A stretch of 64,000 nucleotides of DNA from an uncultured Gammaproteobacteria bacterium (GCA_964348895.1 CAYGEH010000001.1:312002-376001), one strand, 5' to 3'. Shown: positions 27,090-39,680, counted from the stretch's first letter. Notes: generated by a model not told the origin, from the sequence alone. Numbers and translations: made by a program.

Positions 27090-27179
27090 TGGCGGAGGAG
27101 GTGGGATTCGAACCCACGTGAGCCATACGGCTCGCAAGGTTTTCGAGACCTGCTGATTAAACCGCTCTCACACTCCTCC
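27090..27179 (-). tRNA. tRNA-Ser (anticodon CGA), type II with long variable arm
   Basis: GGAGGAG acceptor, anticodon loop CTCGAAA, long variable arm, GGTTCGAATCC T-loop, CCA encoded. Confidence 0.85.
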
Positions 27180-27215
27180 ATCTTTTTAGAATTCCAAAAC
27201 ACCTAAGCTCTCTTT

Positions 27216-27292
27216 TGGCGTCCCCGGCGTGATTCGAACACGCGGCCTACAGTTCCGCAAACTGTCGCTCTATCCAACTGAGCTACGGGAAC
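27216..27292 (-). tRNA. tRNA-Arg (anticodon GCG read from sequence)
   Basis: GTTCCCG acceptor, D-arm GCTCAGTTGGATAGAGC, anticodon loop TTGCGGA, GTGTTCGAATCAC T-arm, CCA encoded; near-identical backbone to tRNA-Arg(CCG) at 37176. Confidence 0.75.
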
Positions 27293-27988: not shown

Positions 27989-28077
27989 GGAGGAGTCGCT
28001 TAGAGGCCCATAGCACAGGTTTGCTAAACCTGCGAGCCGTATGGCTCACGTGGGTTCGAATCCCACCTCCTCCGCCA
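27989..28077 (+). tRNA. tRNA-Ser (anticodon GCT), type II
   Basis: GGAGGAG acceptor, anticodon loop TTGCTAA, long variable arm; 3' 45 nt identical to tRNA-Ser(CGA); 3' half overlapped by the recombinase ORF end. Confidence 0.85.
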
Positions 28078-29520
28078 GTTAGAAAAAGAAGGGTTTGGCT
28101 CGCCCTCTACGAGGGCTCGCCAGCCGATTTTAGGCGCAAAATTGAATTTTTTGTCTTTCAAAATAAAGTTCGAGCCGACATTTTTTAGAAATTGACGGAT
28201 TTCCGTTTTGTCGCTTTGCGACAAAAGAATTTTGGCTTGGCTACTCTGTAAAATCATTTCTTTCATCGGTTCGAGCCAATTATTTCCCGCTTGTTCAAAA
28301 TCTCTGATTTTCTGCTCAATTTCCAGTTTTTCGTTGAGCAGTTTTTGTTTCTTGGCTTGATATTCTTCAAGCGTCAAAGCCCCGCCAGTAATGTAGAGGT
28401 CTAACAATTTTTCAATTTTCTGCTCGGCTTCCGTTTTTTGCCGGTGGAGATTTTGAACAAAAATTCTACTTTCATTTTTGGCTTGTTTTTTTTCTTTGTC
28501 TAACTCGGCAAGCATATTTTTAGCCCACTTGTACGGCAAAGAAACTTTTTGAATAAAATCTCTCATCTGTTCAACAAGATTTTCCTCTCGCAGATATTTT
28601 TCATTACAAGTTTGCTTTTTCTTGGTGCACCGATAATAGTTATGTCCTTTTTGAGTTTCGGCAGTAATGAAGCAACCGCAAGACCCGCAACGCATTAAAC
28701 CGGAAAAAGCAAACTCGTGCTTTCGTTTCCTCTTTTTCTTGCCCCGGTTATTCATTACTTGTTGAACAGAATCAAAAAGTTTCTTGGAAATAATTGGCTC
28801 GTGGATTCCCTGATAAATTTCACCGTTGAATTTGAAAACGCCGTAGTAAAAAGGATTTTTTAACATTCGCTGGACACAAGAACAGGAAAGAACATTGCCT
28901 TTATAGCTGTCTATTTCAGTATCAGCCAAAAACTGCTTTATGGCCTTTAGCGTATATTCGCCGGTGGCATAAAGTTCAAAACATTTTCTAATTAACGGTG
29001 CTTTTTCTTTGTCAGTATCAATAGCTTTCGTCTTATGATTATTGAGATAGCCAAGCGGCGCAAAGCCAGGCCAAATTCCTTTTCGCAGTTTTTGGCGGTG
29101 TCCTCGTTTGATATTTTCAGAAAGGTTATCAATGTAGTATTTACTTTGGCCAAAGGCAATGTTCATCATGAATTTTCCTTGCGGTGTGCTATCAAACCAA
29201 AATGTCGGGAATTTCAAATCCTTAATCTTTCCTGTGTCCAGCAGGTAAATAATCTTTCCGCCATCAATAGAATTTCTCGCCAATCTGTCTGGATGCCAAG
29301 CCAAAATTCCGCTGGCTTCGCCAGCGCAAATCCGATCAAGCATTTCTCCGAAAATTTTTCGGCCAGGTTCTTTGGCGGTTTGCGCCTCGCATAGCGAGGC
29401 GACGATTTCAAGTTTTTCTTTGGCGGCAAATTCTTTTAATTCAGAAAGCTGGGATTCAATACTTAAAATTTGACGTTCCTCGCTGTCCGTTGATTTTCGG
29501 GTGTAAATAAAATACTTCAT
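28024..29520 (-). CDS. large serine recombinase (resolvase/invertase catalytic domain + recombinase/zinc-ribbon + coiled-coil)
   Basis: N-terminus MKYFIYTRKSTDSEERQ (catalytic Ser motif YxRxST), CxxC...C..C zinc-ribbon region (CGSCGCF...YYRC), long coiled-coil tail; last ~50 codons translate IR-A and the tRNA-Ser 3' half (…WRRRWDSNPREPYGSQV). Confidence 0.85.
   Translation of the reverse strand: MKYFIYTRKSTDSEERQILSIESQLSELKEFAAKEKLEIVASLCEAQTAKEPGRKIFGEMLDRICAGEASGILAWHPDRLARNSIDGGKIIYLLDTGKIKDLKFPTFWFDSTPQGKFMMNIAFGQSKYYIDNLSENIKRGHRQKLRKGIWPGFAPLGYLNNHKTKAIDTDKEKAPLIRKCFELYATGEYTLKAIKQFLADTEIDSYKGNVLSCSCVQRMLKNPFYYGVFKFNGEIYQGIHEPIISKKLFDSVQQVMNNRGKKKRKRKHEFAFSGLMRCGSCGCFITAETQKGHNYYRCTKKKQTCNEKYLREENLVEQMRDFIQKVSLPYKWAKNMLAELDKEKKQAKNESRIFVQNLHRQKTEAEQKIEKLLDLYITGGALTLEEYQAKKQKLLNEKLEIEQKIRDFEQAGNNWLEPMKEMILQSSQAKILLSQSDKTEIRQFLKNVGSNFILKDKKFNFAPKIGWRALVEGEPNPSFSNWRRRWDSNPREPYGSQV
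28072..28158. repeat. IR-A left copy (87 bp), begins inside the tRNA-Ser(GCT) 3' end (CCGCCAGTT...)
   Basis: Reverse complement matches 29578-29664 with 1 mismatch. Confidence 0.8.
28159..28186. repeat. IR-C left copy (28 bp), contiguous with IR-A
   Basis: CAAAATAAAGTTCGAGCCGACATTTTTT; perfect reverse-complement copy at 29793-29820. Confidence 0.75.
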
Positions 29521-29577
29521 AATTCTAAAAGATTAAAATTCAGAAAAGCCCGTTTCTGGCGTTTTGCTTCGCAAAAC

Positions 29578-29664
29578 AAAGACAAAAAATTCAATTTTGC
29601 GTCTAAAATCGGCTGGCGAGCCCTCGTAGAGGGCGAGCCAAACCCTTCTTTTTCTAACTGGCGG
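29578..29664. repeat. IR-A right copy (inverted), 47 bp upstream of recombinase start
   Basis: Reverse complement of 28072-28158 (1 mismatch); preceded by perfect hairpin GTTTTGCTTCGCAAAAC at 29561-29577. Confidence 0.8.
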
Positions 29665-29770
29665 TGTGTATTTGAAAAAATCCGAACTGATTTTGCGACC
29701 GATTGGCTCGGCGGGCGGAATTCCCCCCGAACCCCCTTTCCGCCCGCCTCGCCTTGAAGCGGAAGCGAAA
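29661..29770. repeat. IR-B left copy (110 bp) containing GC-rich hairpin GGCGGGCGGAA...TTCCGCCCGCC
   Basis: Reverse complement matches 30975-31084 with 1 mismatch; overlaps end of IR-A by 4 nt. Confidence 0.8.
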
Positions 29771-29792
29771 AGGCAAACCGCCAAAGAACCTG

Positions 29793-29820
29793 AAAAAATG
29801 TCGGCTCGAACTTTATTTTG
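29793..29820. repeat. IR-C right copy (inverted)
   Basis: Perfect reverse complement of 28159-28186. Confidence 0.75.
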
Positions 29821-29929
29821 GCCAGAAGCGGGCTTTTCGAATTTTTATTGATTAAATCCATTTTATTTGGTAGTATTACATTAGGGATAAAGTTCTTATA
29901 TACTACAATACTATCAAAACTTTATTTAT

Positions 29930-30136
29930 ATGACAAGTGGAGAAATAATCAGCGAAAATATTAAACGATTACGCAGTAAACTTGGCTTAACCCAAGACGA
30001 CTTAGCCAAGAAGGCGGATATTAAATACACAACGCTTATGAAAGTCGAAAGCGGTGCTGTAAATAAGCCAAGCGTTCAAACTATGGCGAAAATCGCCAAA
30101 GCGCTTGGTGTTTCAATAGAAGATTTAATAAAGTAA
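29930..30136 (+). CDS. XRE-family helix-turn-helix transcriptional regulator (68 aa)
   Basis: IKRLRSKLGLTQDDLAKKADIKYTTLMKVESG classic XRE HTH; 9 bp before the next gene. Confidence 0.8.
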   Translation: MTSGEIISENIKRLRSKLGLTQDDLAKKADIKYTTLMKVESGAVNKPSVQTMAKIAKALGVSIEDLIK

Positions 30137-30145
30137 AATAAACTT

Positions 30146-30910
30146 ATGAACAAAAAAATTCTTTGGATAATCACAGTTATAATTATTCTCATCAGCGCGG
30201 GTGTATATTTTGTGTTGAACCAGCAACAATCATCGCCGTCGCAGATGATTACTAATTTTGAGGAGTGCGCCCGAGCTGGTTATCCGGTTGGGGAATCATA
30301 CCCAAGACAATGTTGGACACCCGATGGCGGACATTTTGTAGAAGAAATAAAAATTGAACAAATAAAAGAAAAATATACGTCTGAATTGATGGCTATTCCC
30401 GGCGTGGTCGGCGTTGGCATTGGTGAATGTGAAGGCAATCCTTGTATCAAGGTGTTTTTAGAAAACGATTCATCGGACTTGAAAGCGAAAATACCAGCCC
30501 AACTTGACGGATTCAAGGTAGATATCGAAGTAACCGGACCTATTGAAGCGTTAGGTCAAGTAACCATTGTAAGTATGGCGCCCTTATCCGGCTCTTTAGG
30601 AGAAGGAGTTACTATCTACGGCTCAGGTTTTACTCCAAACAATAACGATATTGCTTTTACTAGTGACAAGATAAAGTTCCGAGGAAGAAATACCGCTTAT
30701 TTAAATGGCATTGTTTCTCCAGATGGCAAAACATTGCGCTTTAATCTTCCGGATAACAATAATGTACTGCTTGGCGCCTGCGCATTCTCGCAAATGAAAG
30801 CAAACGAAGCATGTCCAGATATTGGGATAGAATTACCAACAGGCAGTGTCCAAATTTCCGTTGTAAATAAGAATGGTACAAGCAATAGTGTAACCATTGT
30901 AGTAAGATGA
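30146..30910 (+). CDS. secreted/membrane-anchored protein with conserved Cys-containing N-terminal module and beta-sandwich-like C-terminus
   Basis: N-terminal signal anchor; NFEECARAGYPVGESYPRQCWTPDGGHFVEE shared with the protein at 36548-37057; C-terminal G/T/N-rich beta-strand pattern. Confidence 0.65.
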   Translation: MNKKILWIITVIIILISAGVYFVLNQQQSSPSQMITNFEECARAGYPVGESYPRQCWTPDGGHFVEEIKIEQIKEKYTSELMAIPGVVGVGIGECEGNPCIKVFLENDSSDLKAKIPAQLDGFKVDIEVTGPIEALGQVTIVSMAPLSGSLGEGVTIYGSGFTPNNNDIAFTSDKIKFRGRNTAYLNGIVSPDGKTLRFNLPDNNNVLLGACAFSQMKANEACPDIGIELPTGSVQISVVNKNGTSNSVTIVVR

Positions 30911-30974
30911 TATTAATGTAGTATTACAACGCAATAGTATGCCCGAAGTTATCTCAAAACATCCGGAGATTACA

Positions 30975-31084
30975 CTTTCGCTTCCGCTTCAAGGCGAGGC
31001 GGGCGGAAGGGGGGTTCGGGGGGAATTCCGCCCGCCGAGCCAATCGGTCGCAAAATCAGTTCGGATTTTTTCAAATACACACCG
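30975..31084. repeat. IR-B right copy (inverted)
   Basis: Reverse complement of 29661-29770 (1 mismatch). Confidence 0.8.
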
Positions 31085-31212
31085 CTAAGCCAGAAAATGT
31101 TTTTGTTGGCCTAATGCTTCTTTTGATGATTTAGTGAAAAAAACCATGGCAAATATTAAAGAGGCAAAACCAAAATAAAGAATAAACAAATTGTCTGAAT
31201 AAACAGATTCCC

Positions 31213-31695
31213 TTGCCTTGGAAAAAATTAAATCTATTAAGAACTCAGCCGATAAATAAATCTACCATGCTGTACTTTGCTTACGGATCAAACATGAATC
31301 ACACCCAAATGAATGAAAGATGCCCTGGTAGTCGATTTATTGGTCCTGCCAAATTGAGCAGTCATAAATTCGTTTATGACGGTTATTCTAAAACAAGAAA
31401 GGGTGCCGTTGCAAACATAATTAATAAAAACAATTCTAAAGATGCCGTTTGGGGTGGGTTGTTTAAGATTTCGAAAGACAACAAGAATTCTCTCGACTGT
31501 TATGAAGGCTACCCGAGAGTATATGAAAGGATGGAAGTAACCGTTCAGGACTTAAATGGCAAAATGTTTAATGCGTTAGTGTATTTGCGTAAGGGCGAGA
31601 AGGTCGGAATTCCGAGTGAAAATTATCACAAGACTGTGCTTTGTGGTGCTAGGGATTGCGGGTTGCCACAAGACTATATTGATTCGAATCTTTAA
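31213..31695 (+). CDS. gamma-glutamyl cyclotransferase (AIG2/GGCT-like) family protein
   Basis: YFAYGSNM N-terminal motif and catalytic-region E (YEGYPRVYER); true start is probably the internal Met at 31267 (MLYFAYGSNM). Confidence 0.7.
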   Translation: MPWKKLNLLRTQPINKSTMLYFAYGSNMNHTQMNERCPGSRFIGPAKLSSHKFVYDGYSKTRKGAVANIINKNNSKDAVWGGLFKISKDNKNSLDCYEGYPRVYERMEVTVQDLNGKMFNALVYLRKGEKVGIPSENYHKTVLCGARDCGLPQDYIDSNL

Positions 31696-31809
31696 TGTGA
31701 AACATTTATCTTCACAATAGTTTGGCAGAACACTAACCCTGTGGCTAAAATAACGGCTAAAACCATAAAGAAACTAGATGTTTTTATTGATGTTTTAATG
31801 AAATAGAGA

Positions 31810-32439
31810 ATGAAGAATCAGCCTAAGCTAACCACAGAAATATATGATGAGATAAGCACTGCTTATGTCGCTAAATTTAATAAGCCATCTGAGAATATAG
31901 ACGATTTTCTGAAATTGATTAGAGAGGGGGGTAAAATTTTAGATGCAGGCTGTGGCCCCGGAACAGACGCTTCTTATGTTGCTTCCAAGGGTTTTAATGT
32001 AATCGGCATTGATCTTTCGGAAAAAATGCTTGAAATAGCAAAAAGAAAAAGCCCAGGAATATGTTTTCAAAAAGCTGACATCCGTAGGCTTAATTTTAAA
32101 CCAAATATTTTTGACGGCATTATTGCTTCCTTCTCTCTCATTCATATTTTTAAGAAAGATATTAATAAAACCATTAATAATTTTTATAAGTTGCTAAAAC
32201 CTGGGGGAGTTGTTTATATCGGAATTCAAGAGGGAAAATCACAAGAAATATTTTTAGTCGAACCATTAAAGTCAGACGAAAGAATTTTTCTTAATATTAT
32301 TTCTGTCAAAGAAATAAAAGAAATTCTTATTAGAGCAAGATTTCTTGTTTTAGCTGAATTTTTAAGACCTGCAGAAAATAAAGAAGAATTTGATTTTAAA
32401 AAGTTTATTGTAATAGCAAGAAAGTCCACTTCAAATTAG
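31810..32439 (+). CDS. class I SAM-dependent methyltransferase
   Basis: Motif I ILDAGCGPGTD, motif post-I VIGIDLSEKM, motif II FDGIIASF. Confidence 0.75.
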   Translation: MKNQPKLTTEIYDEISTAYVAKFNKPSENIDDFLKLIREGGKILDAGCGPGTDASYVASKGFNVIGIDLSEKMLEIAKRKSPGICFQKADIRRLNFKPNIFDGIIASFSLIHIFKKDINKTINNFYKLLKPGGVVYIGIQEGKSQEIFLVEPLKSDERIFLNIISVKEIKEILIRARFLVLAEFLRPAENKEEFDFKKFIVIARKSTSN

Positions 32440-32649
32440 AGAAAATTTTATAGAAGCGCTTTGTGTTTCAATAAAAGGTTTAGTAAAAACAATATGGAAA
32501 AACATCTCCGCCAATTTATAAGTGATTTAAGAAATAAATAAAACTGTGTTTGTCGCAATTTCCAAATTTACAAAAAATATTTTAAAATATATAAATATAA
32601 TCACACATAAAATAATTTTATTAGAACAAAATTTTCAATAATAAAACTA

Positions 32650-33411
32650 ATGAATCCGCTAATTATAAAAATATCAACACTGGTGGCCTATGTCGTCATG
32701 GTGGCTGTTAACCATTTGGCGGTAATACTTCCCCTCGGTGGTAGAACCACGGGTACGATATCAAACAATTATCCAAACCTCTTTGCTCCAGCCGGCTATG
32801 CGTTTTCCATCTGGGGTTTGATTTATATTCTTTTGGGTGTTTACGCTGTATATCAATTACGAAGAGAGAAAGATGTATTGGTGGAAAAAATCAATCGTAT
32901 TTTCATCGTAAATACTCTTCTTAATGCTTCATGGATGTTTGCTTGGCACTATGATTTTATCTGGCTCTCTGTCGTTCTCATGATTGGACTGTTAATTACT
33001 CTTATTAAAATTGTGAATATTTTCTCTACACATATTTTTACTCCAAAAGAAAAGTTTCTGGTGCGCCTGCCCTTCAGTGTTTATTTTGGTTGGGTTACTG
33101 TTGCTACAATTGCCAACATTACCGTTTTTCTAGTTTATCTTGGCTGGAATCGATTTGGATTGCCTGAAAATGTTTGGATGGTTATGGTTCTTTTGATCGG
33201 AGCCCTAATTGGTTCGTGGCGAATGTTGCGCGATCGCTATGCTTCTTATGGGCTTGTGCTTGTTTGGGCGTATGGTGCTATTCTTGCTAGACACCTTTCG
33301 ATAAGTGGTTTTAACAGACAATATCCAAGTGTAATTTGGACTGTGGTTTTGTGTCTTTTTATATTTTTAGGAGTAATCACCTTTATAAGCATTAAGAAAA
33401 AGAATAATTAA
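32650..33411 (+). CDS. hypothetical polytopic membrane protein (possibly TspO/MBR-like, uncertain)
   Basis: 253 aa, ~7 hydrophobic helices, Trp-rich (NASWMFAWHY); family assignment not secure. Confidence 0.5.
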   Translation: MNPLIIKISTLVAYVVMVAVNHLAVILPLGGRTTGTISNNYPNLFAPAGYAFSIWGLIYILLGVYAVYQLRREKDVLVEKINRIFIVNTLLNASWMFAWHYDFIWLSVVLMIGLLITLIKIVNIFSTHIFTPKEKFLVRLPFSVYFGWVTVATIANITVFLVYLGWNRFGLPENVWMVMVLLIGALIGSWRMLRDRYASYGLVLVWAYGAILARHLSISGFNRQYPSVIWTVVLCLFIFLGVITFISIKKKNN

Positions 33412-33413
33412 TT

Positions 33414-33812
33414 ATGTTTCTTAAGCTCTGGTTTATCGCCCTGCCAGTTTTTTTTGTTATCGATATGCTTTGGCTTGGGCTAGTGGCTAAGAACTTTTAC
33501 GCTAAACAAATCGGAACACTTTTAAAGTCAAACGTTAACTGGGCGGCGGCGGTTATTTTTTACTTAATTTTTATTACTGGTCTAGTTGTTTTTGTTATTA
33601 ATCCAGCCATGGAAAAGGGATCGTGGACACACGCTCTTCTTTTTGGCGCTTTGTTTGGTTTCGTGTGTTACGCAACTTACGATCTGACAAATTTGGCACT
33701 AACAAAGGGCTGGTCAGTTTTAGTAACTGTTGTTGATTTGGCGTGGGGTGCGACTTTGGCGGCTTTGGTTTCGGTTATAACCTACTTTATCGCCACCAAA
33801 CTAGGGCTGTGA
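33414..33812 (+). CDS. hypothetical 4-TM membrane protein
   Basis: 132 aa, start 3 nt after preceding stop (operon with 32650). Confidence 0.5.
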   Translation: MFLKLWFIALPVFFVIDMLWLGLVAKNFYAKQIGTLLKSNVNWAAAVIFYLIFITGLVVFVINPAMEKGSWTHALLFGALFGFVCYATYDLTNLALTKGWSVLVTVVDLAWGATLAALVSVITYFIATKLGL

Positions 33813-33967
33813 ACTACTTCTTGATCCTTATCTTAATCTTATTTGTATATGTGTTTTTGTGGTTTAGGTTTTTAAAGAGAAAAGAGAACAGCCCGATTAA
33901 CATGATTTGGGGTCTGGGGTTTGTCTTTTTGGTGCGGATGTTTTTTTTGTTTTTTTAAAAAAGTAAT

Positions 33968-34312
33968 ATGCGTATCTGGGATATATCGCCAAAATATTTG
34001 TGCAGGAAACATTTACTCGCCGAACACCGTGAACTTCATGGTTTATGGAACATTTTAACCAAACATGAAGGTAGGGGTGGTTACTCTCGACACCCCGAGA
34101 CCCTGCGTTGGGCTGGAAAAACAAAGGCGCTTTACAAAAGGCACAAAATGCTAACAGAGGAATTTGCAAGACGGGGATATGAGCATCGTTCCCCACTTGA
34201 GGAAAAATTAGCCAAAGGCTTAATTAGTCAAAAAGCGTTTATTAATACCCTCCAAGAACAAAAAACGATTTTAAAAAATAAACCTTGTGATTGCCTGCTT
34301 CGCTTTAAATAA
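33968..34312 (+). CDS. pyrimidine-dimer DNA glycosylase-like protein (T4 endonuclease V-like family), tentative
   Basis: N-terminus MRIWDISPKYLCRKHLLAEHRELHGLW matches the conserved start of bacterial Pyr_excise/DenV-like proteins as recalled. Confidence 0.45.
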   Translation: MRIWDISPKYLCRKHLLAEHRELHGLWNILTKHEGRGGYSRHPETLRWAGKTKALYKRHKMLTEEFARRGYEHRSPLEEKLAKGLISQKAFINTLQEQKTILKNKPCDCLLRFK

Positions 34313-34488
34313 GGCAAGGAGCTGGTAATTAATAAAACTTTATTTGTATTGTGAGTGAAAATATTAAAAATATGCCCATTATTTTTGCTGAAAACTTAGA
34401 TCTAAAGCCAGAAACAAATCAAAGCCTTAAACTCTGACAGAAACATTAAAAATTGGTGTTTGAAGAGAAACTTTAATAAAATAATCAT

Positions 34489-35742
34489 ATGGAGAAACAA
34501 GCACAGACTGGGGAAACTACTTTTAGTTTCGAACAGCAAGGGGTAGCCCCAAGAGAGAGATTGCTAGAAATTAAAAATGAACTTTGGGGAATTAGTAAAA
34601 ACTCATCAAACGAACAGCGCAGCCAATTAATCGACAGAATACCCTCTGCTCTTATTTTTATGGGTGAAACACTAAAACAAGATAATTACTATCTTGAAAC
34701 CCTTAAAATAATAAACTACATGGGAACAGCCTCTTCTGTAGCAGATATCCCTGAGTTAAATCAATTAAGAAATTCATTTGTAGAGCAAAATTTGCAGGTA
34801 ATAATGCAGGGGGCGATAGAAGAAGGCATTAAGAGTGATGGCGACGATAAAAATAGAAGGGTCGCTCTTCGGTGCTTGTCTTTTACTGTTGTAAGCGGAA
34901 CCGAAAAACAGCGAACACATATTTTATCTACAATAGATTCCCACAGATTTGACTTGATTCACAGCCCTGGCGATACAGAAGTGTTTCGGTCTTATTTTGA
35001 AGTCATATTTAAACATGGATCAGTCGAACAGAAGAAAAATGCAGCAGAGCTAGTTTTGTCTTTTTACAATAATAATGAAGATTTTTCCAGAAAAGTTGCT
35101 GGTTTAAACATGATGAGACTTTATTATGACCAATTTTCTGATAAAAGTTTTCCTGCCTCCGATATAATACAATTGGACGATCCAATTTATCAACAGATTA
35201 CAGAAACACTAAAGCAATATATTCCCGACATTGATGATCTTGTCCAGAAAGTTCTTTATGGTGGCCCTGTTAGTAAAAACATTTTTGGTAATCCCGATAA
35301 TGTAGGCACAAGACTGGTAGACAACATGAATGCTGTTTTACATCTTGAACGGCAGAGGTCGGGTATTTGTCAAGTATTACGAAAGGAATTTGGCATCAGA
35401 AACTTCTTTAGATATCCCCCTGAAGTACTCATTGCCCAATATGATAATCGTAATGTTGTGACAGAAATAGGCATCGTAGCAGTAGCCCTCTATGACCACA
35501 ATGGGTATTTTTACCAAGGGTTTGTTCAAAACAAAGTGCTAAATTTATTTGCTCGACTACAAAACGAACAAACACTGGGAAAGAAATATGGCCTTATGGT
35601 TTATGAGATTGAGGATAGTCGCGAACTGGCAAGAGCCATTACTCACAGTCAGAGTAGAAAACTATTGTTTGGCATGATAATCGGTTATGGCGCGTTATGG
35701 CCAAAGAGCTCAGTTGAACTTGACGATTTCTTTTCTTTATAG
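34489..35742 (+). CDS. hypothetical protein (417 aa)
   Basis: long soluble ORF, helical-repeat-like N-half; no homology recognised. Confidence 0.5.
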   Translation: MEKQAQTGETTFSFEQQGVAPRERLLEIKNELWGISKNSSNEQRSQLIDRIPSALIFMGETLKQDNYYLETLKIINYMGTASSVADIPELNQLRNSFVEQNLQVIMQGAIEEGIKSDGDDKNRRVALRCLSFTVVSGTEKQRTHILSTIDSHRFDLIHSPGDTEVFRSYFEVIFKHGSVEQKKNAAELVLSFYNNNEDFSRKVAGLNMMRLYYDQFSDKSFPASDIIQLDDPIYQQITETLKQYIPDIDDLVQKVLYGGPVSKNIFGNPDNVGTRLVDNMNAVLHLERQRSGICQVLRKEFGIRNFFRYPPEVLIAQYDNRNVVTEIGIVAVALYDHNGYFYQGFVQNKVLNLFARLQNEQTLGKKYGLMVYEIEDSRELARAITHSQSRKLLFGMIIGYGALWPKSSVELDDFFSL

Positions 35743-36105
35743 AAAGGCTAATCGTAATAACTCCTTAATCTCAGAAGATATGGAAAATTTAATCCCCTCT
35801 GTTTCTGGAGCACTTGAAAAAGCACTTCAATTATCTTTGATTCTTGCAGTACTGGACAGGGCATAGTCCAAGAAGCCTCAAGGTTAAGCTTAAGAGTTTT
35901 GGGGCCAATTCGCCCTGATTTAATCAAGTCATATACTATAACTCACAAAAAGAAGGACTCAACATTGACGCTGAATGGATTTTAGAAGAAAAAGTAACTT
36001 ATTGTCATAGCGCTCGCGAGTTTGATTTAAAAAGTATTAACCACTAAAAAAGGCCTTGAAGACAAACTCTTGCGACTACCTTCTTAACATGCTTAAATAG
36101 TTTTT

Positions 36106-36423
36106 ATGAAAAAAATCATAACAATAATATCGATTATTGTTTTGGGCGGGGCGGGGGTTTATTTATTAACTTCTTCAAGAGAGCCCACAGTTCGACCAGA
36201 ATTAAAGTGTCAAACAGCAGAAATGACCTACTTTTACCGCCCTGAATGTTCTTGGTGTCAACAAATTAAGAGAGAAAGGGTGATAGAGAAAATAAAAGAA
36301 TTGGGAGTAGAAGTAGAAGCAAGATATTCAAGTATGGGTTCAGTGCCAAGATTTTTAATTAATGATGAGACTCATACTGGCTATAGAACCCTAGAACAAC
36401 TAAAAGAATTATTGGGTTGTTAA
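36106..36423 (+). CDS. membrane-anchored thioredoxin-fold protein
   Basis: N-terminal TM anchor followed by PECSWCQQ (CxxC) redox motif. Confidence 0.6.
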   Translation: MKKIITIISIIVLGGAGVYLLTSSREPTVRPELKCQTAEMTYFYRPECSWCQQIKRERVIEKIKELGVEVEARYSSMGSVPRFLINDETHTGYRTLEQLKELLGC

Positions 36424-36547
36424 AATTTCAATAAACAAAAACGGGCTGGTTTCGTCTTCGTGATAATAAACACTCCACAAGAAGAACTTAAAGCCAAGCG
36501 GGTATATAATAAAAGAGGCTTGGGTCTAAATTATTAAAATAAATCTT

Positions 36548-37057
36548 GTGGGTAGAAAAACTGCTTTTATCATCGTAATTGCTCTTTTCCTTTTGGGCTT
36601 GGGTGTGTATTTTATGCAAGCCCAGCAAAGACCATTATCAACACAAGCAGTAACCAACTTTAAAGAATGTGCTCAGGCTGGTTTTCCTGTGGGAGAATCT
36701 TTTCCTAGACAATGCTGGACACCAGACGGAAGGCATTTTGTTGAAGAAGTAAAACAAGAAGGGCCGTCCCCTGTTTCGGAATCAATTATGATCTCTGGAA
36801 CAATAACCTGCCTGCCAAAAATCAGTTCAGGCCCACAAACCATGGAGTGTGCCATTGGCTTAAAAGACAATGACGGCGACTATTATGGCCTAAAAAATCT
36901 CTTTAGTTTTGACCTGGAGTATAAGTTTTCTCAGCCTGGATTAAGAGTTCAGGTTTCTGGTGTTTTACTGGAGGAGGAAATGAGGGGTCCAGACGGAAAC
37001 AGATATGATATTATCGGAGTAATTGATTTGGCTTCCATAAAAGAGGCTGAAAATTAA
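36548..37057 (+). CDS. secreted/membrane-anchored protein, paralog of 30146-30910 N-terminal module
   Basis: NFKECAQAGFPVGESFPRQCWTPDGRHFVEE ~80% identical to the N-terminal module of 30146 protein; different C-terminus. Confidence 0.65.
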   Translation: MGRKTAFIIVIALFLLGLGVYFMQAQQRPLSTQAVTNFKECAQAGFPVGESFPRQCWTPDGRHFVEEVKQEGPSPVSESIMISGTITCLPKISSGPQTMECAIGLKDNDGDYYGLKNLFSFDLEYKFSQPGLRVQVSGVLLEEEMRGPDGNRYDIIGVIDLASIKEAEN

Positions 37058-37081: not shown

Positions 37082-37165
37082 GGAAGGGTCGGATAATGGT
37101 ATTCCACCAGTCTTGAAAACTGGCGCCGCTAAAATGGCTTGTGGGTTCGAGCCCCACCCCTTCCG
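37082..37165 (+). tRNA. tRNA-Ser (anticodon TGA), type II; CCA not encoded
   Basis: GGAAGGG acceptor, anticodon loop CTTGAAA, long variable arm, GGTTCGAGCCC T-loop. Confidence 0.8.
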
Positions 37166-37175
37166 CCCTCTCTTT

Positions 37176-37249
37176 GTTCCCGTAGCTCAGCTGGATAGAG
37201 TGACGGTTTCCGGAACCGTAGGTCGCGTGTTCAAATCACGCCGGGAACG
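37176..37249 (+). tRNA. tRNA-Arg (anticodon CCG)
   Basis: GTTCCCG acceptor, anticodon loop TTCCGGA, GTGTTCAAATCAC T-arm; ends 3 nt before the Nudix ATG. Confidence 0.85.
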
Positions 37250-37252
37250 CTT

Positions 37253-37811: not shown

Positions 37812-37903
<92 letters not shown>

Positions 37904-38044
37904 TTAGGAAATGTCTTTGTTCCACAAAGCGGACGCTAGAGGCGAGTTTTTGTTGATTAGGTTCATTTTGTTTGGGAACATAAAAAAATGAAAATAAACA
38001 CCAATTTAATCTTAAGTTGTCAGAATCCTAAGATGTGGCAAGTA

Positions 38045-38235
38045 ATAAAAATACAATTAGGAACAACATCAAGAAATTACGAGTAAAGCTTGGTTTAACG
38101 CAAGACAATTTAGCCAAAAAAATCTGGTGCTAAACACATAACCCTTTCAAAAATTGAAAACGAGGCGTTTACAAAATCGGTCGCACATAATAATATAACA
38201 GTGAAATCTCTAAAACGCTTGGTGTTTTTTAATAG
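38045..38235 (+). pseudogene. decayed copy of the XRE HTH gene (frameshifted, no start codon)
   Basis: Translates ...IRNNIKKLRVKLGLTQDNLAKK then shifts frame to SGAKHITLSKIENEAF...; clear homology to 29930-30136 protein but disrupted. Confidence 0.5.
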
Positions 38236-38279
38236 AAGAATTATTAAAATAGTTTTAATCATCATTTAAAAATAAATTT

Positions 38280-38627
38280 ATGAGGAAAAAAATATCAAAA
38301 TTTTTAAATAGAACTATTTTTCTAGTTGCCAGCGTATTAACAGCCATTTTTTTAAAAGCAGCTCATGCTTTGGCTCAAGAATTTAATCCAAATACAGTAA
38401 TTATTTATGGTCCTCCAGAGCTTATAGCCTGCGGGGGCAATAAATTGTGCTATTCATTATTACTATACTGGTCAAGACTTTCGTGGATATCTGCTATTAT
38501 TGTTTTGCTTGTTTTACTTGCGATACCATTTGGGATTGTTAAGCTCATAACAAAAGTTGTCCGAAGAAAGAAACAAAATCAAAAAATTCAACCACCAAAA
38601 TCAACCGATGGATTACCCAAGCAGTAG
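38280..38627 (+). CDS. small signal-peptide/TM protein with CGGNKLC motif; possible substrate or partner of the downstream radical-SAM enzyme
   Basis: 115 aa; stop TAG immediately followed by the radical-SAM ATG (TAGATG). Confidence 0.45.
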   Translation: MRKKISKFLNRTIFLVASVLTAIFLKAAHALAQEFNPNTVIIYGPPELIACGGNKLCYSLLLYWSRLSWISAIIVLLVLLAIPFGIVKLITKVVRRKKQNQKIQPPKSTDGLPKQ

Positions 38628-39680
38628 ATGTCAAATTATCTTTTGTCGAAAATCAAACTTATTGGTTTTCAAAAGAGCTTTTTATTGTCCTATAAAATAG
38701 GCGTTGTTCCTCCACCAAAGTTTATAATTTGGGATTGCACCAGAAAATGTAATTTGAGCTGCGAACACTGTGGTGCAAAAAAAGAGAAATATTCGACAGA
38801 GCTCACAACTCAACAGACAAAGAATCTCGTTAAAAAACTATCAGACTACAAAGTTAAGTATTTCGTTGTTACAGGTGGAGAGCCATTATTAAGACAAGAC
38901 CTTTTTGAAATTTTTTCTTTTGCAAAAGAAGTTGGACTGAAAACTGGTTTAGCAACGAACGGTTTCTTTATTAACGAAGACAACAGTAAAGTTATCGCTA
39001 AGGTTTTTGATTCTGTCCAGATTAGCTTAGACGGGCCTCAAGAGGTCCACAATAAGATAAGGGGAAATAAAGAGGCTTTTCAAAGGGCTGTTAACGGAGT
39101 AAACTTGCTTCGCAAAAATAAATGTAAGCAAATAACAATATCTTCGGTTATTACCACTTCAAACATTAGGAATTTAAAGAAACTTATAGGAATAGTAAAG
39201 AAATTAGATGTTGATATTTGGAAAATTGTTTCGGTTATGCCAATAGGAAAGGTTGAACAAAATGATAATTTATACTTAAATAGGCAAGAGTTTTTAAAAC
39301 TTTTAAATTTCATAAAAAGGAATAAAAAGAAATTAAGAATTGAGTTTGGGGAAAATCTTGGCTATTTAGAAAAATATGATAAGAAGGTAAGAAGTGAACC
39401 ATTCTTTTGCCCGGTTGGATTTTTGGCTTGTTGTGTTGGCGTTAATGGAAAAATAAGAGGATGTCCCGAGCAGCCGGATATTCCATCTTTTACAGAAGGA
39501 AATATTTTAGAAAGGGATTTTTCTGAAATTTGGGAAAGTGGATTTAAGAAATATCGGGACAGGGAGCTTTTACAAGATGAAACCTGCAGGAAATGTAAGC
39601 TTAAGAATGACTGCAATGGTGGTTGTTGGGTAATGAGATTAAAAGACATTAACTGTTCAGTAAGACGATATTGTTTATAA
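38628..39680 (+). CDS. radical SAM enzyme with C-terminal SPASM-like Cys-rich domain
   Basis: CNLSCEHC (CxxxCxxC) radical-SAM cluster; C-terminal CPVGFLACCVGVNGKIRGC...CRKCKLKNDCNGGCW auxiliary-cluster pattern. Confidence 0.85.
   Translation: MSNYLLSKIKLIGFQKSFLLSYKIGVVPPPKFIIWDCTRKCNLSCEHCGAKKEKYSTELTTQQTKNLVKKLSDYKVKYFVVTGGEPLLRQDLFEIFSFAKEVGLKTGLATNGFFINEDNSKVIAKVFDSVQISLDGPQEVHNKIRGNKEAFQRAVNGVNLLRKNKCKQITISSVITTSNIRNLKKLIGIVKKLDVDIWKIVSVMPIGKVEQNDNLYLNRQEFLKLLNFIKRNKKKLRIEFGENLGYLEKYDKKVRSEPFFCPVGFLACCVGVNGKIRGCPEQPDIPSFTEGNILERDFSEIWESGFKKYRDRELLQDETCRKCKLKNDCNGGCWVMRLKDINCSVRRYCL

Follow-up and report, generated by a model that had tools for sequence, protein, structure and literature searches.

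What do two proteins have in common that begin alike and end differently, and did a mobile element bring them to where they stand? The question is raised by a stretch of 64,000 nucleotides (GCA_964348895.1, CAYGEH010000001.1:312002-376001; hereafter the window), which encodes two such proteins, P1 and P2. An initial annotation placed both of them beside tRNA-Ser genes and genes for XRE-family helix-turn-helix (HTH) regulators, at mobile-element hotspots, and likened them to polymorphic surface-protein, adhesin or toxin families.

We favour, with a probability of about 0.6, the reading that P1 and P2 are old paralogs in a shuffled family of Patescibacteria surface proteins, with the XRE gene and P1 as the cargo of a separate cassette. 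The family would comprise type II (N-in, C-out) membrane-anchored extracytoplasmic proteins and would be very large and built by domain shuffling. Its hallmark would be a mini-domain of ~35 residues, in which one short helix packs on a β-hairpin and is stapled to it by a disulfide between two invariant cysteines. This module would act as a generic, promiscuous membrane-proximal block that presents different small disulfide-containing binding domains on the cell surface: an OB-fold barrel in P2, and an α/β 'GVGIGEC' domain together with an IPT/TIG immunoglobulin (Ig)-like domain in P1. The role of the two proteins is most likely the binding of a ligand, an envelope or a host cell, for adhesion or protection, and not the delivery of a toxin.

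The window has a GC content of ~38%, and other proteins encoded in it group with those of Patescibacteria (Ca. Woesebacteria). Members of the Patescibacteria live attached to other cells and have a surface proteome that is largely unannotated. Together with its partners, a two-cysteine mini-domain found in over 4,000 protein clusters would offer a handle for annotating a large block of this proteome, and the domain model helps to pick constructs for binding and structural work.

The module common to P1 and P2 and its partners

Both open reading frames are present (Table 1), that of P2 with a GTG start. The proposed combination of a common anchor and Cys-containing module with complete divergence thereafter was confirmed. 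BLASTP aligned the proteins with 41 identities in 71 positions (58%, E = 9e-31), confined to residues 1–71, and found no similar segment beyond residue 71. The common part consists of an anchor helix and a ~35-aa two-Cys module with the consensus ITNFEECxxAGYPVxESYPRQCWTPDGxxFVE (the W is variable), in which C, A, E, S, P, C and E are invariant; tblastn found two copies in the window, those of P1 and P2. The anchor is an N-terminal transmembrane (TM) helix that looks uncleaved, spanning residues 3–26 in the models of both proteins, and neither sequence contains a lipobox. Cysteines come exactly two to a module in P1 and in P2, which supports the view that each pair would form one disulfide outside the cytoplasm.

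At the DNA level the common part is 64% identical, and 71% in its core. Estimated by the Nei-Gojobori method, synonymous differences are saturated (pS 0.74–0.92) and nonsynonymous differences are low (pN 0.25 overall and 0.11 in the core). These values mark P1 and P2 as old paralogs under purifying selection, with no recent duplication or gene conversion. The dN/dS comparison that the initial annotation had called for thus points to strong purifying selection on the module.

The common region matched no Pfam or NCBIfam model, the module profile found no match among PDB sequences at E ≤ 10, and a literature search on the module returned nothing specific. DUF333 (PF03891) was considered as a relative, its C..GG...C..DG pattern looking alike by eye; hhalign gave this pairing a probability of 1%, and DUF333 matches lie beside the module, so the relationship was rejected.

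The structures of both proteins were predicted with AlphaFold2 (AF2). The model of P2 was built from a 27-sequence alignment and has a mean predicted local distance difference test score (pLDDT) of 83. In both models the module folds as a helix (residues 38–43/44) and two strands (55–57 and 63–65) forming a β-hairpin, with block-mean pLDDT values of 71–79 in P2 and 77–88 in P1. The tail of P2 is modelled as a β barrel over residues 78–166 with pLDDT >90, and is predicted to be an OB-fold barrel (residues ~78–166) of the NigD/potempin/BOF type. The tail of P1 is predicted to contain a 2-Cys α/β domain, arranged α-β-β-α-β over residues 70–129, and an IPT/TIG (PF01833) Ig-like domain (residues ~139–254). 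These folds replace the long and short β-sandwich-like tails first proposed, and they are binding-type folds, no toxin fold having emerged from the prediction. In sequence the P2 barrel shares 15–19% identity with NigD-N, the Tannerella potempins and BOF (YgiW), matches none of these families and has a conserved Cys pair of its own, C88/C101; a protease-inhibitor function would be hypothetical.

Among 1.84 billion cluster representatives, a 36-position profile of the module (alignment A2) matched 4,149 proteins at E ≤ 1e-3, of which 1,951 reach E ≤ 1e-10; the carriers are 60–626 aa long, with one to three scored copies each. Among 217 retrieved proteins carrying the core motif, the first module Cys falls at residue 25–70 in 165 (~76%), and a hydrophobic stretch precedes the module in 195. 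The homolog search, taking up a suggestion of the initial annotation, revealed a promiscuous module spread over thousands of proteins rather than a feature private to two paralogs.

With N denoting the common two-Cys module, B the C-terminal domain of P2 and D residues ~70–136 of P1 (motif PGVVGVGIGECxGxPC), the relatives form a mosaic. P0024 and P0047 are N+D+B, uniting the middle domain of P1 and the tail of P2 in one protein; P0046 is N+TIG; P0006 is N+8Cys+B, with the eight-cysteine-cluster domain TIGR04289/PF27854; P0010 and P0003 are N+B+8Cys; P0071 and P0098 are N+B+Hint_2; and P0018 has two N modules. The eight-cysteine-cluster domain has no match in P1 or P2 and was matched only in relatives (P0006, P0010). 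Partner Pfam families, counted in the top 137 representatives only and thus in a set biased to multi-copy proteins, include Kazal (7), DUF333 (4) and Gmad2 (4), and also Germane, PrcB_C, cupredoxin and fn3; the first homolog search added Hint_2, MliC and TIG. A constant N-terminal module with many alternative C-termini is accordingly a property of the family as a whole. The initial annotation had also foreseen that the module might turn up in many unrelated proteins without C-terminal variability: it does occur in thousands of unrelated proteins, yet their partners vary.

Two of these domains were also seen in further settings. The D module, for which Pfam has no model, recurs in P0045, P0064, P0133 and P0082, where it is found two or three times in tandem, behind TIG domains, or as the C-terminal part of a Nal1_C-like protease homolog. 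The autoprocessing domain Hint_2 (PF13403) stands at the end of P0051, P0058, P0066, P0071, P0098, P0100, P0102 and P0115; some of these surface proteins may accordingly be cleaved or ligated at the C-terminus.

The family resembles known modular surface proteins with TIG/Ig, BOF/OB-fold and TIGR04289 domains in combining an anchor or signal with variable disulfide-containing domains, and TIG, OB-fold and eight-Cys domains co-occur in it as well. It differs in its 35-aa module, which matches no Pfam, NCBIfam or PDB sequence model. Cys-rich exported proteins have been noted in genomes of the candidate phyla radiation (CPR), with more than 1,000 aa in Peribacteria (PMC4736985), whereas members of the P1/P2 family are small, at ~130–400 aa.

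The cassette around P1

P1 does lie beside a tRNA-Ser gene in a mobile-element context and is paired with an intact XRE HTH gene, as had been noted. A recombinase gene stands between P1 and the tRNA-Ser(gct) gene, which is 2.07 kb upstream, and the XRE gene ends 9 nt before P1 (Table 1). The recombinase has all three Pfam domains of large serine recombinases above their cut-offs. Nested inverted repeats (28072-31085) surround the recombinase and the XRE-P1 pair: A (28072-28158) and A' (29578-29664) match over 87 nt at 99%, C (29661-29770) and C' (30976-31085) over 110 nt at 99%, and B (28159-28186) and B' (29793-29820) over 28 nt at 100%. The complete order is tRNA-Ser(gct), A, B, recombinase (minus strand), motif, 17-nt hairpin, A', C, 22 nt, B', leader, XRE, P1, C' and flank. 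The junctions tRNA/A (CCGCCA/GTTAGAAAAAG), C'/A (on the minus strand of A'C, CACACCGCCA/GTTAGAAAAAG) and C'/flank (CACACCGC/TAAGCC) have ..CCGC(CA) in common. Read from its sequence, the XRE-P1 pair is the cargo of a small cassette (leader, XRE, cargo, C') beside tRNA-Ser(gct) with a large serine recombinase.

Table 1. Features of the P1 and P2 loci; positions are counted from the first nucleotide of the window.
Feature	Position	Strand	Remarks
tRNA-Ser(gct)	27989-28077	+	putative integration target; 3' end ..CCGCCA abuts arm A; ARAGORN, Rfam tRNA
Large serine recombinase, 498 aa	28024-29520	-	Pfam Resolvase 1.9e-17, Recombinase 2.1e-15, Zn_ribbon_recom 1.1e-9
Arm A, left cassette end	28078-28158		non-coding, GC hairpin; 88-98% identical copies in many other loci
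B, 28-bp repeat	28159-28186		100% inverted partner B'; 93-100% conserved in 33 metagenome loci (among matches listed)
Inverted copy of joined cassette ends (A'+C)	29578-29770	-	minus strand reads C'/A, ..CACACCGCCA/GTTAGAAAAAG; attP-like
B'	29793-29820		inverted copy of B; leader directly after
Cassette leader	29821-29929	+	begins with motif GCCAGAAGCGGGCTTTTC; homologs in L010, L018, the relic and 60 metagenome loci (among matches listed)
XRE-family HTH regulator, 68 aa	29930-30136	+	first cassette gene; Pfam HTH_3 3.1e-15
P1, 254 aa	30146-30910	+	TM anchor 30152-30223; N module 30245-30349 (C41, C56)
P1 D module	30353-30553	+	predicted 2-Cys α/β domain 'GVGIGEC' (C95, C100)
P1 IPT/TIG Ig-like domain	30560-30907	+	predicted; C212, C223
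C', right cassette end	30976-31085		non-coding; ends ..CAAATACACACCGC, then chromosome-side sequence
Membrane-anchored thioredoxin/glutaredoxin-like protein, CSWC	36106-36423	+	125 nt upstream of P2; NCBIfam glutaredoxin E 0.05-0.07 (weak)
P2, 169 aa	36548-37057	+	GTG start; TM anchor 36554-36625; N module 36647-36751 (C41, C56)
P2 OB-fold barrel	36779-37045	+	predicted; C88, C101
tRNA-Ser(tga)	37082-37167	+	starts 25 nt after P2 stop
tRNA-Ser(gga)	37813-37902	+	precedes decayed cassette
Decayed leader + XRE (HTH relic)	37930-38250	+	nhmmer E=2.5e-14 against 29829-30134; tblastn 17/22 residues (77%)
Decayed-cassette cargo: 115-aa TM protein + 350-aa radical-SAM protein	38280-39680	+	near-identical pair between XRE and C' in L045

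The last ~45 codons of the recombinase gene (28024-28186, minus strand) are the reverse strand of B, A and the tRNA-Ser 3' end, and the C-terminus of the enzyme would differ in the other B/B' orientation. The leader holds a promoter-like ATTACA-18-TATACT; promoter and terminator counts in the scan do not exceed those of shuffled sequences. C'/A was considered as an RNA gene and rejected, with no Rfam match and a fold not clearly better than that of shuffles (z = -1.7, -2.7, -1.2 and -0.8). Rfam matches on the cassette loci were tRNAs and, in L063, an unrelated signal recognition particle (SRP) RNA that does not overlap the element. C'/A is therefore better read as recombination or regulatory DNA.

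The same frame recurs in other genomes, with other cargo at ~70 further loci of several phyla among the matches listed. An 18-mer from C' matched 55 species representatives in GTDB, with 36 extended matches, against ~17 expected by chance; the extended matches include many Patescibacteria and also long contigs of Chloroflexota, Sedimentisphaerales and an anammox bacterium. The C'+A unit (~200 nt, ..ACACACCGCCA/GTTAG.AAA) is contiguous in many genomes and ~85–100% conserved across 36 GTDB species of several phyla and dozens of metagenome contigs. In metagenomes, a 19-mer from the leader matched at least 120 contigs; among the matches listed, 60 have an extended leader, 57 of these 60 have XRE after it, and 38 carry recombinase sequence. 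Recombinase copies elsewhere are 78–93% identical and have the same architecture. A mirror-image arrangement is found in Ca. Uhrbacteria (L075), where the target is tRNA-Ser(cga), the recombinase is 88% identical, the A arms are 93% alike and the cargo differs from XRE+P1; this copy argues that the layout in the window is no assembly artefact.

Several forms of the element can be distinguished. The complex form is complete at nine or more metagenome loci (at least L088, L101, L106, L108, L111, L152, L154, L156 and L176) and in L075, and L051 has the same order up to a contig end within the recombinase gene. An invertible-segment switch of the invertase/shufflon type was also considered: inverted repeats are present, all complete complex copies have a single orientation, and the opposite recombinase orientation appears only in deletion derivatives with a forward-reading recombinase stub (L023, L091, L133, L157). 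A simple form lacking the recombinase, with the order tRNA-Ser, A, hairpin, leader, XRE, cargo and C', occupies ~17 metagenome loci among the matches listed, together with L026 and L064, and L028 is a bare mini unit of tRNA-Ser, A, B, 22 nt and C'. The layout in the window may be interpreted as a tandem of a mini unit and a canonical element after B/B' inversion. In the canonical element the order would be A, hairpin, motif, recombinase (forward), B', leader, XRE, cargo and C', with B' inside the 3' end of the recombinase gene.

The cargo of these cassettes is very diverse, ranging from restriction-modification pairs and hydrolases to membrane proteins and a radical-SAM pair. About one-third of the cassettes among the matches listed carry a single anchored protein with a P1-like anchor, for example MNKK...GGVFYFWNQQQ. 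One strain (L010) has the leader, XRE, P1, C' and flank at 99.8% identity with a different left flank, the break falling exactly between 29820 and 29821, which indicates a recent rearrangement at the leader boundary. The left flank in this strain (L010:1-1323) contains a LexA-like gene and a diverged C'/A-like stretch. At another locus (L026:2780-3165) the tRNA and arm A are separated by two additional, partial copies of the tRNA-Ser 3' end arranged in tandem, the pattern that repeated integration would be expected to leave.

As in tRNA-targeting integrative elements, the recombinase and the element stand at a tRNA 3' end, and the same frame carries other cargo elsewhere. With tycheposons (bioRxiv 10.1101/2020.12.28.424599) and with SCC-type elements, which large serine recombinases move, the P1 cassette shares a site-specific recombinase beside a tRNA gene, tRNA-Ser included; likewise, cargo varies within its family, some members lack the recombinase, and tandem accretion is seen together with partial tRNA 3' ends (L026). 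It is, however, far smaller (1–3 kb, usually XRE and one to three genes), its ~100-nt non-coding arms are ~85–100% conserved across phyla, and it contains an internal inverted copy of its joined ends and 28-bp inverted repeats flanking the recombinase module. Tyrosine recombinases are used by 910 of the 937 elements in the tycheposon study (bioRxiv 10.1101/2020.12.28.424599), whereas the P1 cassette uses a large serine recombinase. Integron gene cassettes are similarly small and mostly single-gene, with conserved structured ends and diverse cargo, and accumulate at one site. The P1 cassette lacks an IntI tyrosine recombinase, attI and attC, has ends unlike attC, targets a tRNA-Ser 3' end, and belongs to a type in which each cassette brings its own leader/promoter and XRE regulator.

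No description of this element was found in the literature. We tentatively consider that the frame could be an undescribed cross-phylum serine-recombinase cassette platform, with ultra-conserved non-coding C'+A ends of ~200 nt that form the attP-like junction, an invertible recombinase/attP module between the 28-bp repeats, and non-autonomous cassettes through which Patescibacteria and other phyla swap small cargo, often a single membrane-anchored surface protein such as P1; the module family would belong to the surface repertoire so traded. This extended proposal is possible but doubtful. If active, the frame would be a compact route for exchanging surface, restriction-modification or enzyme genes at tRNA-Ser among ultra-small bacteria and several other phyla; new large serine recombinases whose att sites are defined might also come from it.

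Alternative readings of the module

Several observations count against the view of P1 and P2 as old paralogs in a shuffled surface-protein family with P1 as separate cassette cargo. The module is not strictly membrane-proximal, since it starts at or beyond residue 100 in 30 of the 217 proteins and is internal, C-terminal or repeated in some; the notion of a pedestal may thus be too restrictive, and binding could be a property of the module itself. Its topology and disulfide are predictions. The model of P1, from a 40-row fragment alignment, has a moderate mean pLDDT of 74 and falls below 50 in the linker at residues 133–152, and no experimental or structural homolog assigning the module a function was found. 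The mobility of the cassette is deduced from comparative structure, and neither an empty tRNA-Ser site nor an excised circle was recovered. Finally, tblastn detected no N, B or D module in ~70 other cassettes among the matches listed, which suggests that the link between family and element is incidental; N-module proteins were rejected as typical cassette cargo on this ground.

The module could itself be the functional unit, a binding or inhibitor-like domain directed at envelope-attacking hydrolases or at a wall or host ligand, with its partners as accessories. Its extreme conservation is in keeping with this, as are its presence as the near-sole domain of 60–90 aa proteins, its tandem arrays of two to three or more, and its fusion with inhibitor-type domains (Kazal in seven proteins, MliC, PrcB_C and the potempin-like OB-fold). 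The inhibitor association, however, comes from the biased set of 137 representatives, the partners also include unrelated cupredoxin, Hint, fn3 and hydrolase-like domains, and no characterised inhibitor or binding domain proved homologous to the module. We judge this reading unlikely, though it is the one that survives best next to the surface-protein family proposed above.

A second alternative regards the module as a sorting or processing tag beside the signal anchor, read by a peptidase, a sortase-like enzyme or an oxidoreductase and with no role in the mature protein. The module directly follows the anchor in ~76% of the proteins, the two move together between fusion partners, and a gene for a membrane-anchored CxxC thioredoxin-like protein adjoins P2. 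But the module is predicted to be a folded mini-domain and no linear motif, it also occurs far from N-termini and in repeats, the thioredoxin-like neighbour is absent at five other P2-type loci, and no sortase- or exosortase-type signal was seen. A tag is consequently an improbable reading.

Under the toxin part of the initial annotation, a constant N-terminal trafficking module would be joined to interchangeable C-terminal toxins, accompanied by immunity genes and diversifying at mobile-element hotspots. Like the polymorphic toxins of the contact-dependent inhibition (CDI), Rhs and MafB systems, the P1/P2 family combines one N-terminal part with many C-termini; P1 lies within a presumably mobile cassette, and some relatives end in Hint_2. 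Hint domains release toxins in some polymorphic toxin systems. The C-termini of P1 and P2, however, are predicted OB-fold and TIG domains with no match to a toxin family in Pfam or NCBIfam. The module is not limited to the N-terminus, being also internal, C-terminal or in tandem, no pre-toxin demarcation motif is present, and the module is conserved, with no diversification boundary. The closest relatives retain the C-terminus (full-length and collinear, at 96% identity for P0001 and P2 and at 100% for P0044 and P1); these relatives showed no C-terminal replacement between close strains, and the window contains no extra module or C-terminal fragments of the kind expected in orphan arrays. A neighbouring immunity-like gene was sought and none was found: neither P1 nor P2 has a small ORF downstream; the non-coding C' comes after P1, with a GGACT-family gene 300 nt further on, and tRNA-Ser comes after P2. 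Of the resemblance first suggested, a surface or adhesin-like role stays plausible, but toxin delivery is unsupported and very improbable. A constant N-terminus with a variable C-terminus is not by itself the signature of a polymorphic toxin.

That the similarity is a generic motif near a signal peptide or lipoprotein anchor, with no domain status, is already refuted by the profile comparison: N-terminal hydrophobic helices are alike in composition in any exported protein, but the conserved part lies after the helix, scores 77–141 bits in the 36-position profile, and has two invariant cysteines and a consistent predicted fold, with no lipobox.

The surroundings of P2

The mobile-element hotspot of the initial annotation applies to P1 but not to P2, which in the window has no adjoining leader, C' or XRE and thus no cassette hallmarks. 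P1, but not demonstrably P2, is on sequence grounds cargo of a widespread serine-recombinase/tRNA-Ser cassette element. Both genes do have a tRNA-Ser nearby, tRNA-Ser(gct) for P1 and tRNA-Ser(tga) for P2. Adjacency to tRNA-Ser was nevertheless dropped as a trait of the family, being found at one of five other homolog loci (L018), with no tRNA nearby at the other four. At that locus tRNA-Ser(tga) and a homologous leader precede the gene for P0011, and XRE is lacking. A C'-like element comes after P0004 (L001); the P0047 and P0009 loci have neither leader nor C'-like element, and no tRNA nearby.

The frameshifted HTH relic that had been paired with P2 is indeed a decayed XRE gene, but it belongs to a different unit. 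It is separated from P2, which lies upstream, by ~0.9 kb that holds two tRNAs, a NUDIX gene and tRNA-Ser(gga), and the genes that follow it (38280-39680) match the cargo of an intact cassette in L045. The relic accordingly heads a separate, decayed radical-SAM cassette and is no partner of P2. The pair formed by the 115-aa TM protein and the radical-SAM protein may be RiPP-like.

Short matches to the 3' end of XRE, 32–34 nt long, precede other genes at 32454-32487 (88%) and 34453-34484 (84%). Older cassettes between C' and P2 may have left them as traces, though as sequence matches they are too short for proof. An XRE relic as the head of a P2 cassette was considered and left unproven, the matches being only ~32 nt and the alignment weak.

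The CSWC thioredoxin-like protein encoded upstream of P2 could be a thiol oxidoreductase that works outside the cytoplasm; its candidacy as a conserved P2 partner was rejected on the comparison of P2-type loci given above. At three loci (L001, L005, L006) homologs of P1 or P2 stand at the edges of defence or toxin-antitoxin islands, with HicAB, PIN, AbiEii and HepT/MNT in one and CBASS or methyltransferases in others. The window contains seven tRNA genes, with four tRNA-Ser isoacceptors within 11 kb, and pairs of tRNA-Ser and tRNA-Arg genes on either side of this region, at 27090-27292 and 37082-37250, are inverted relative to each other, their tRNA-Arg copies being 90% complementary.

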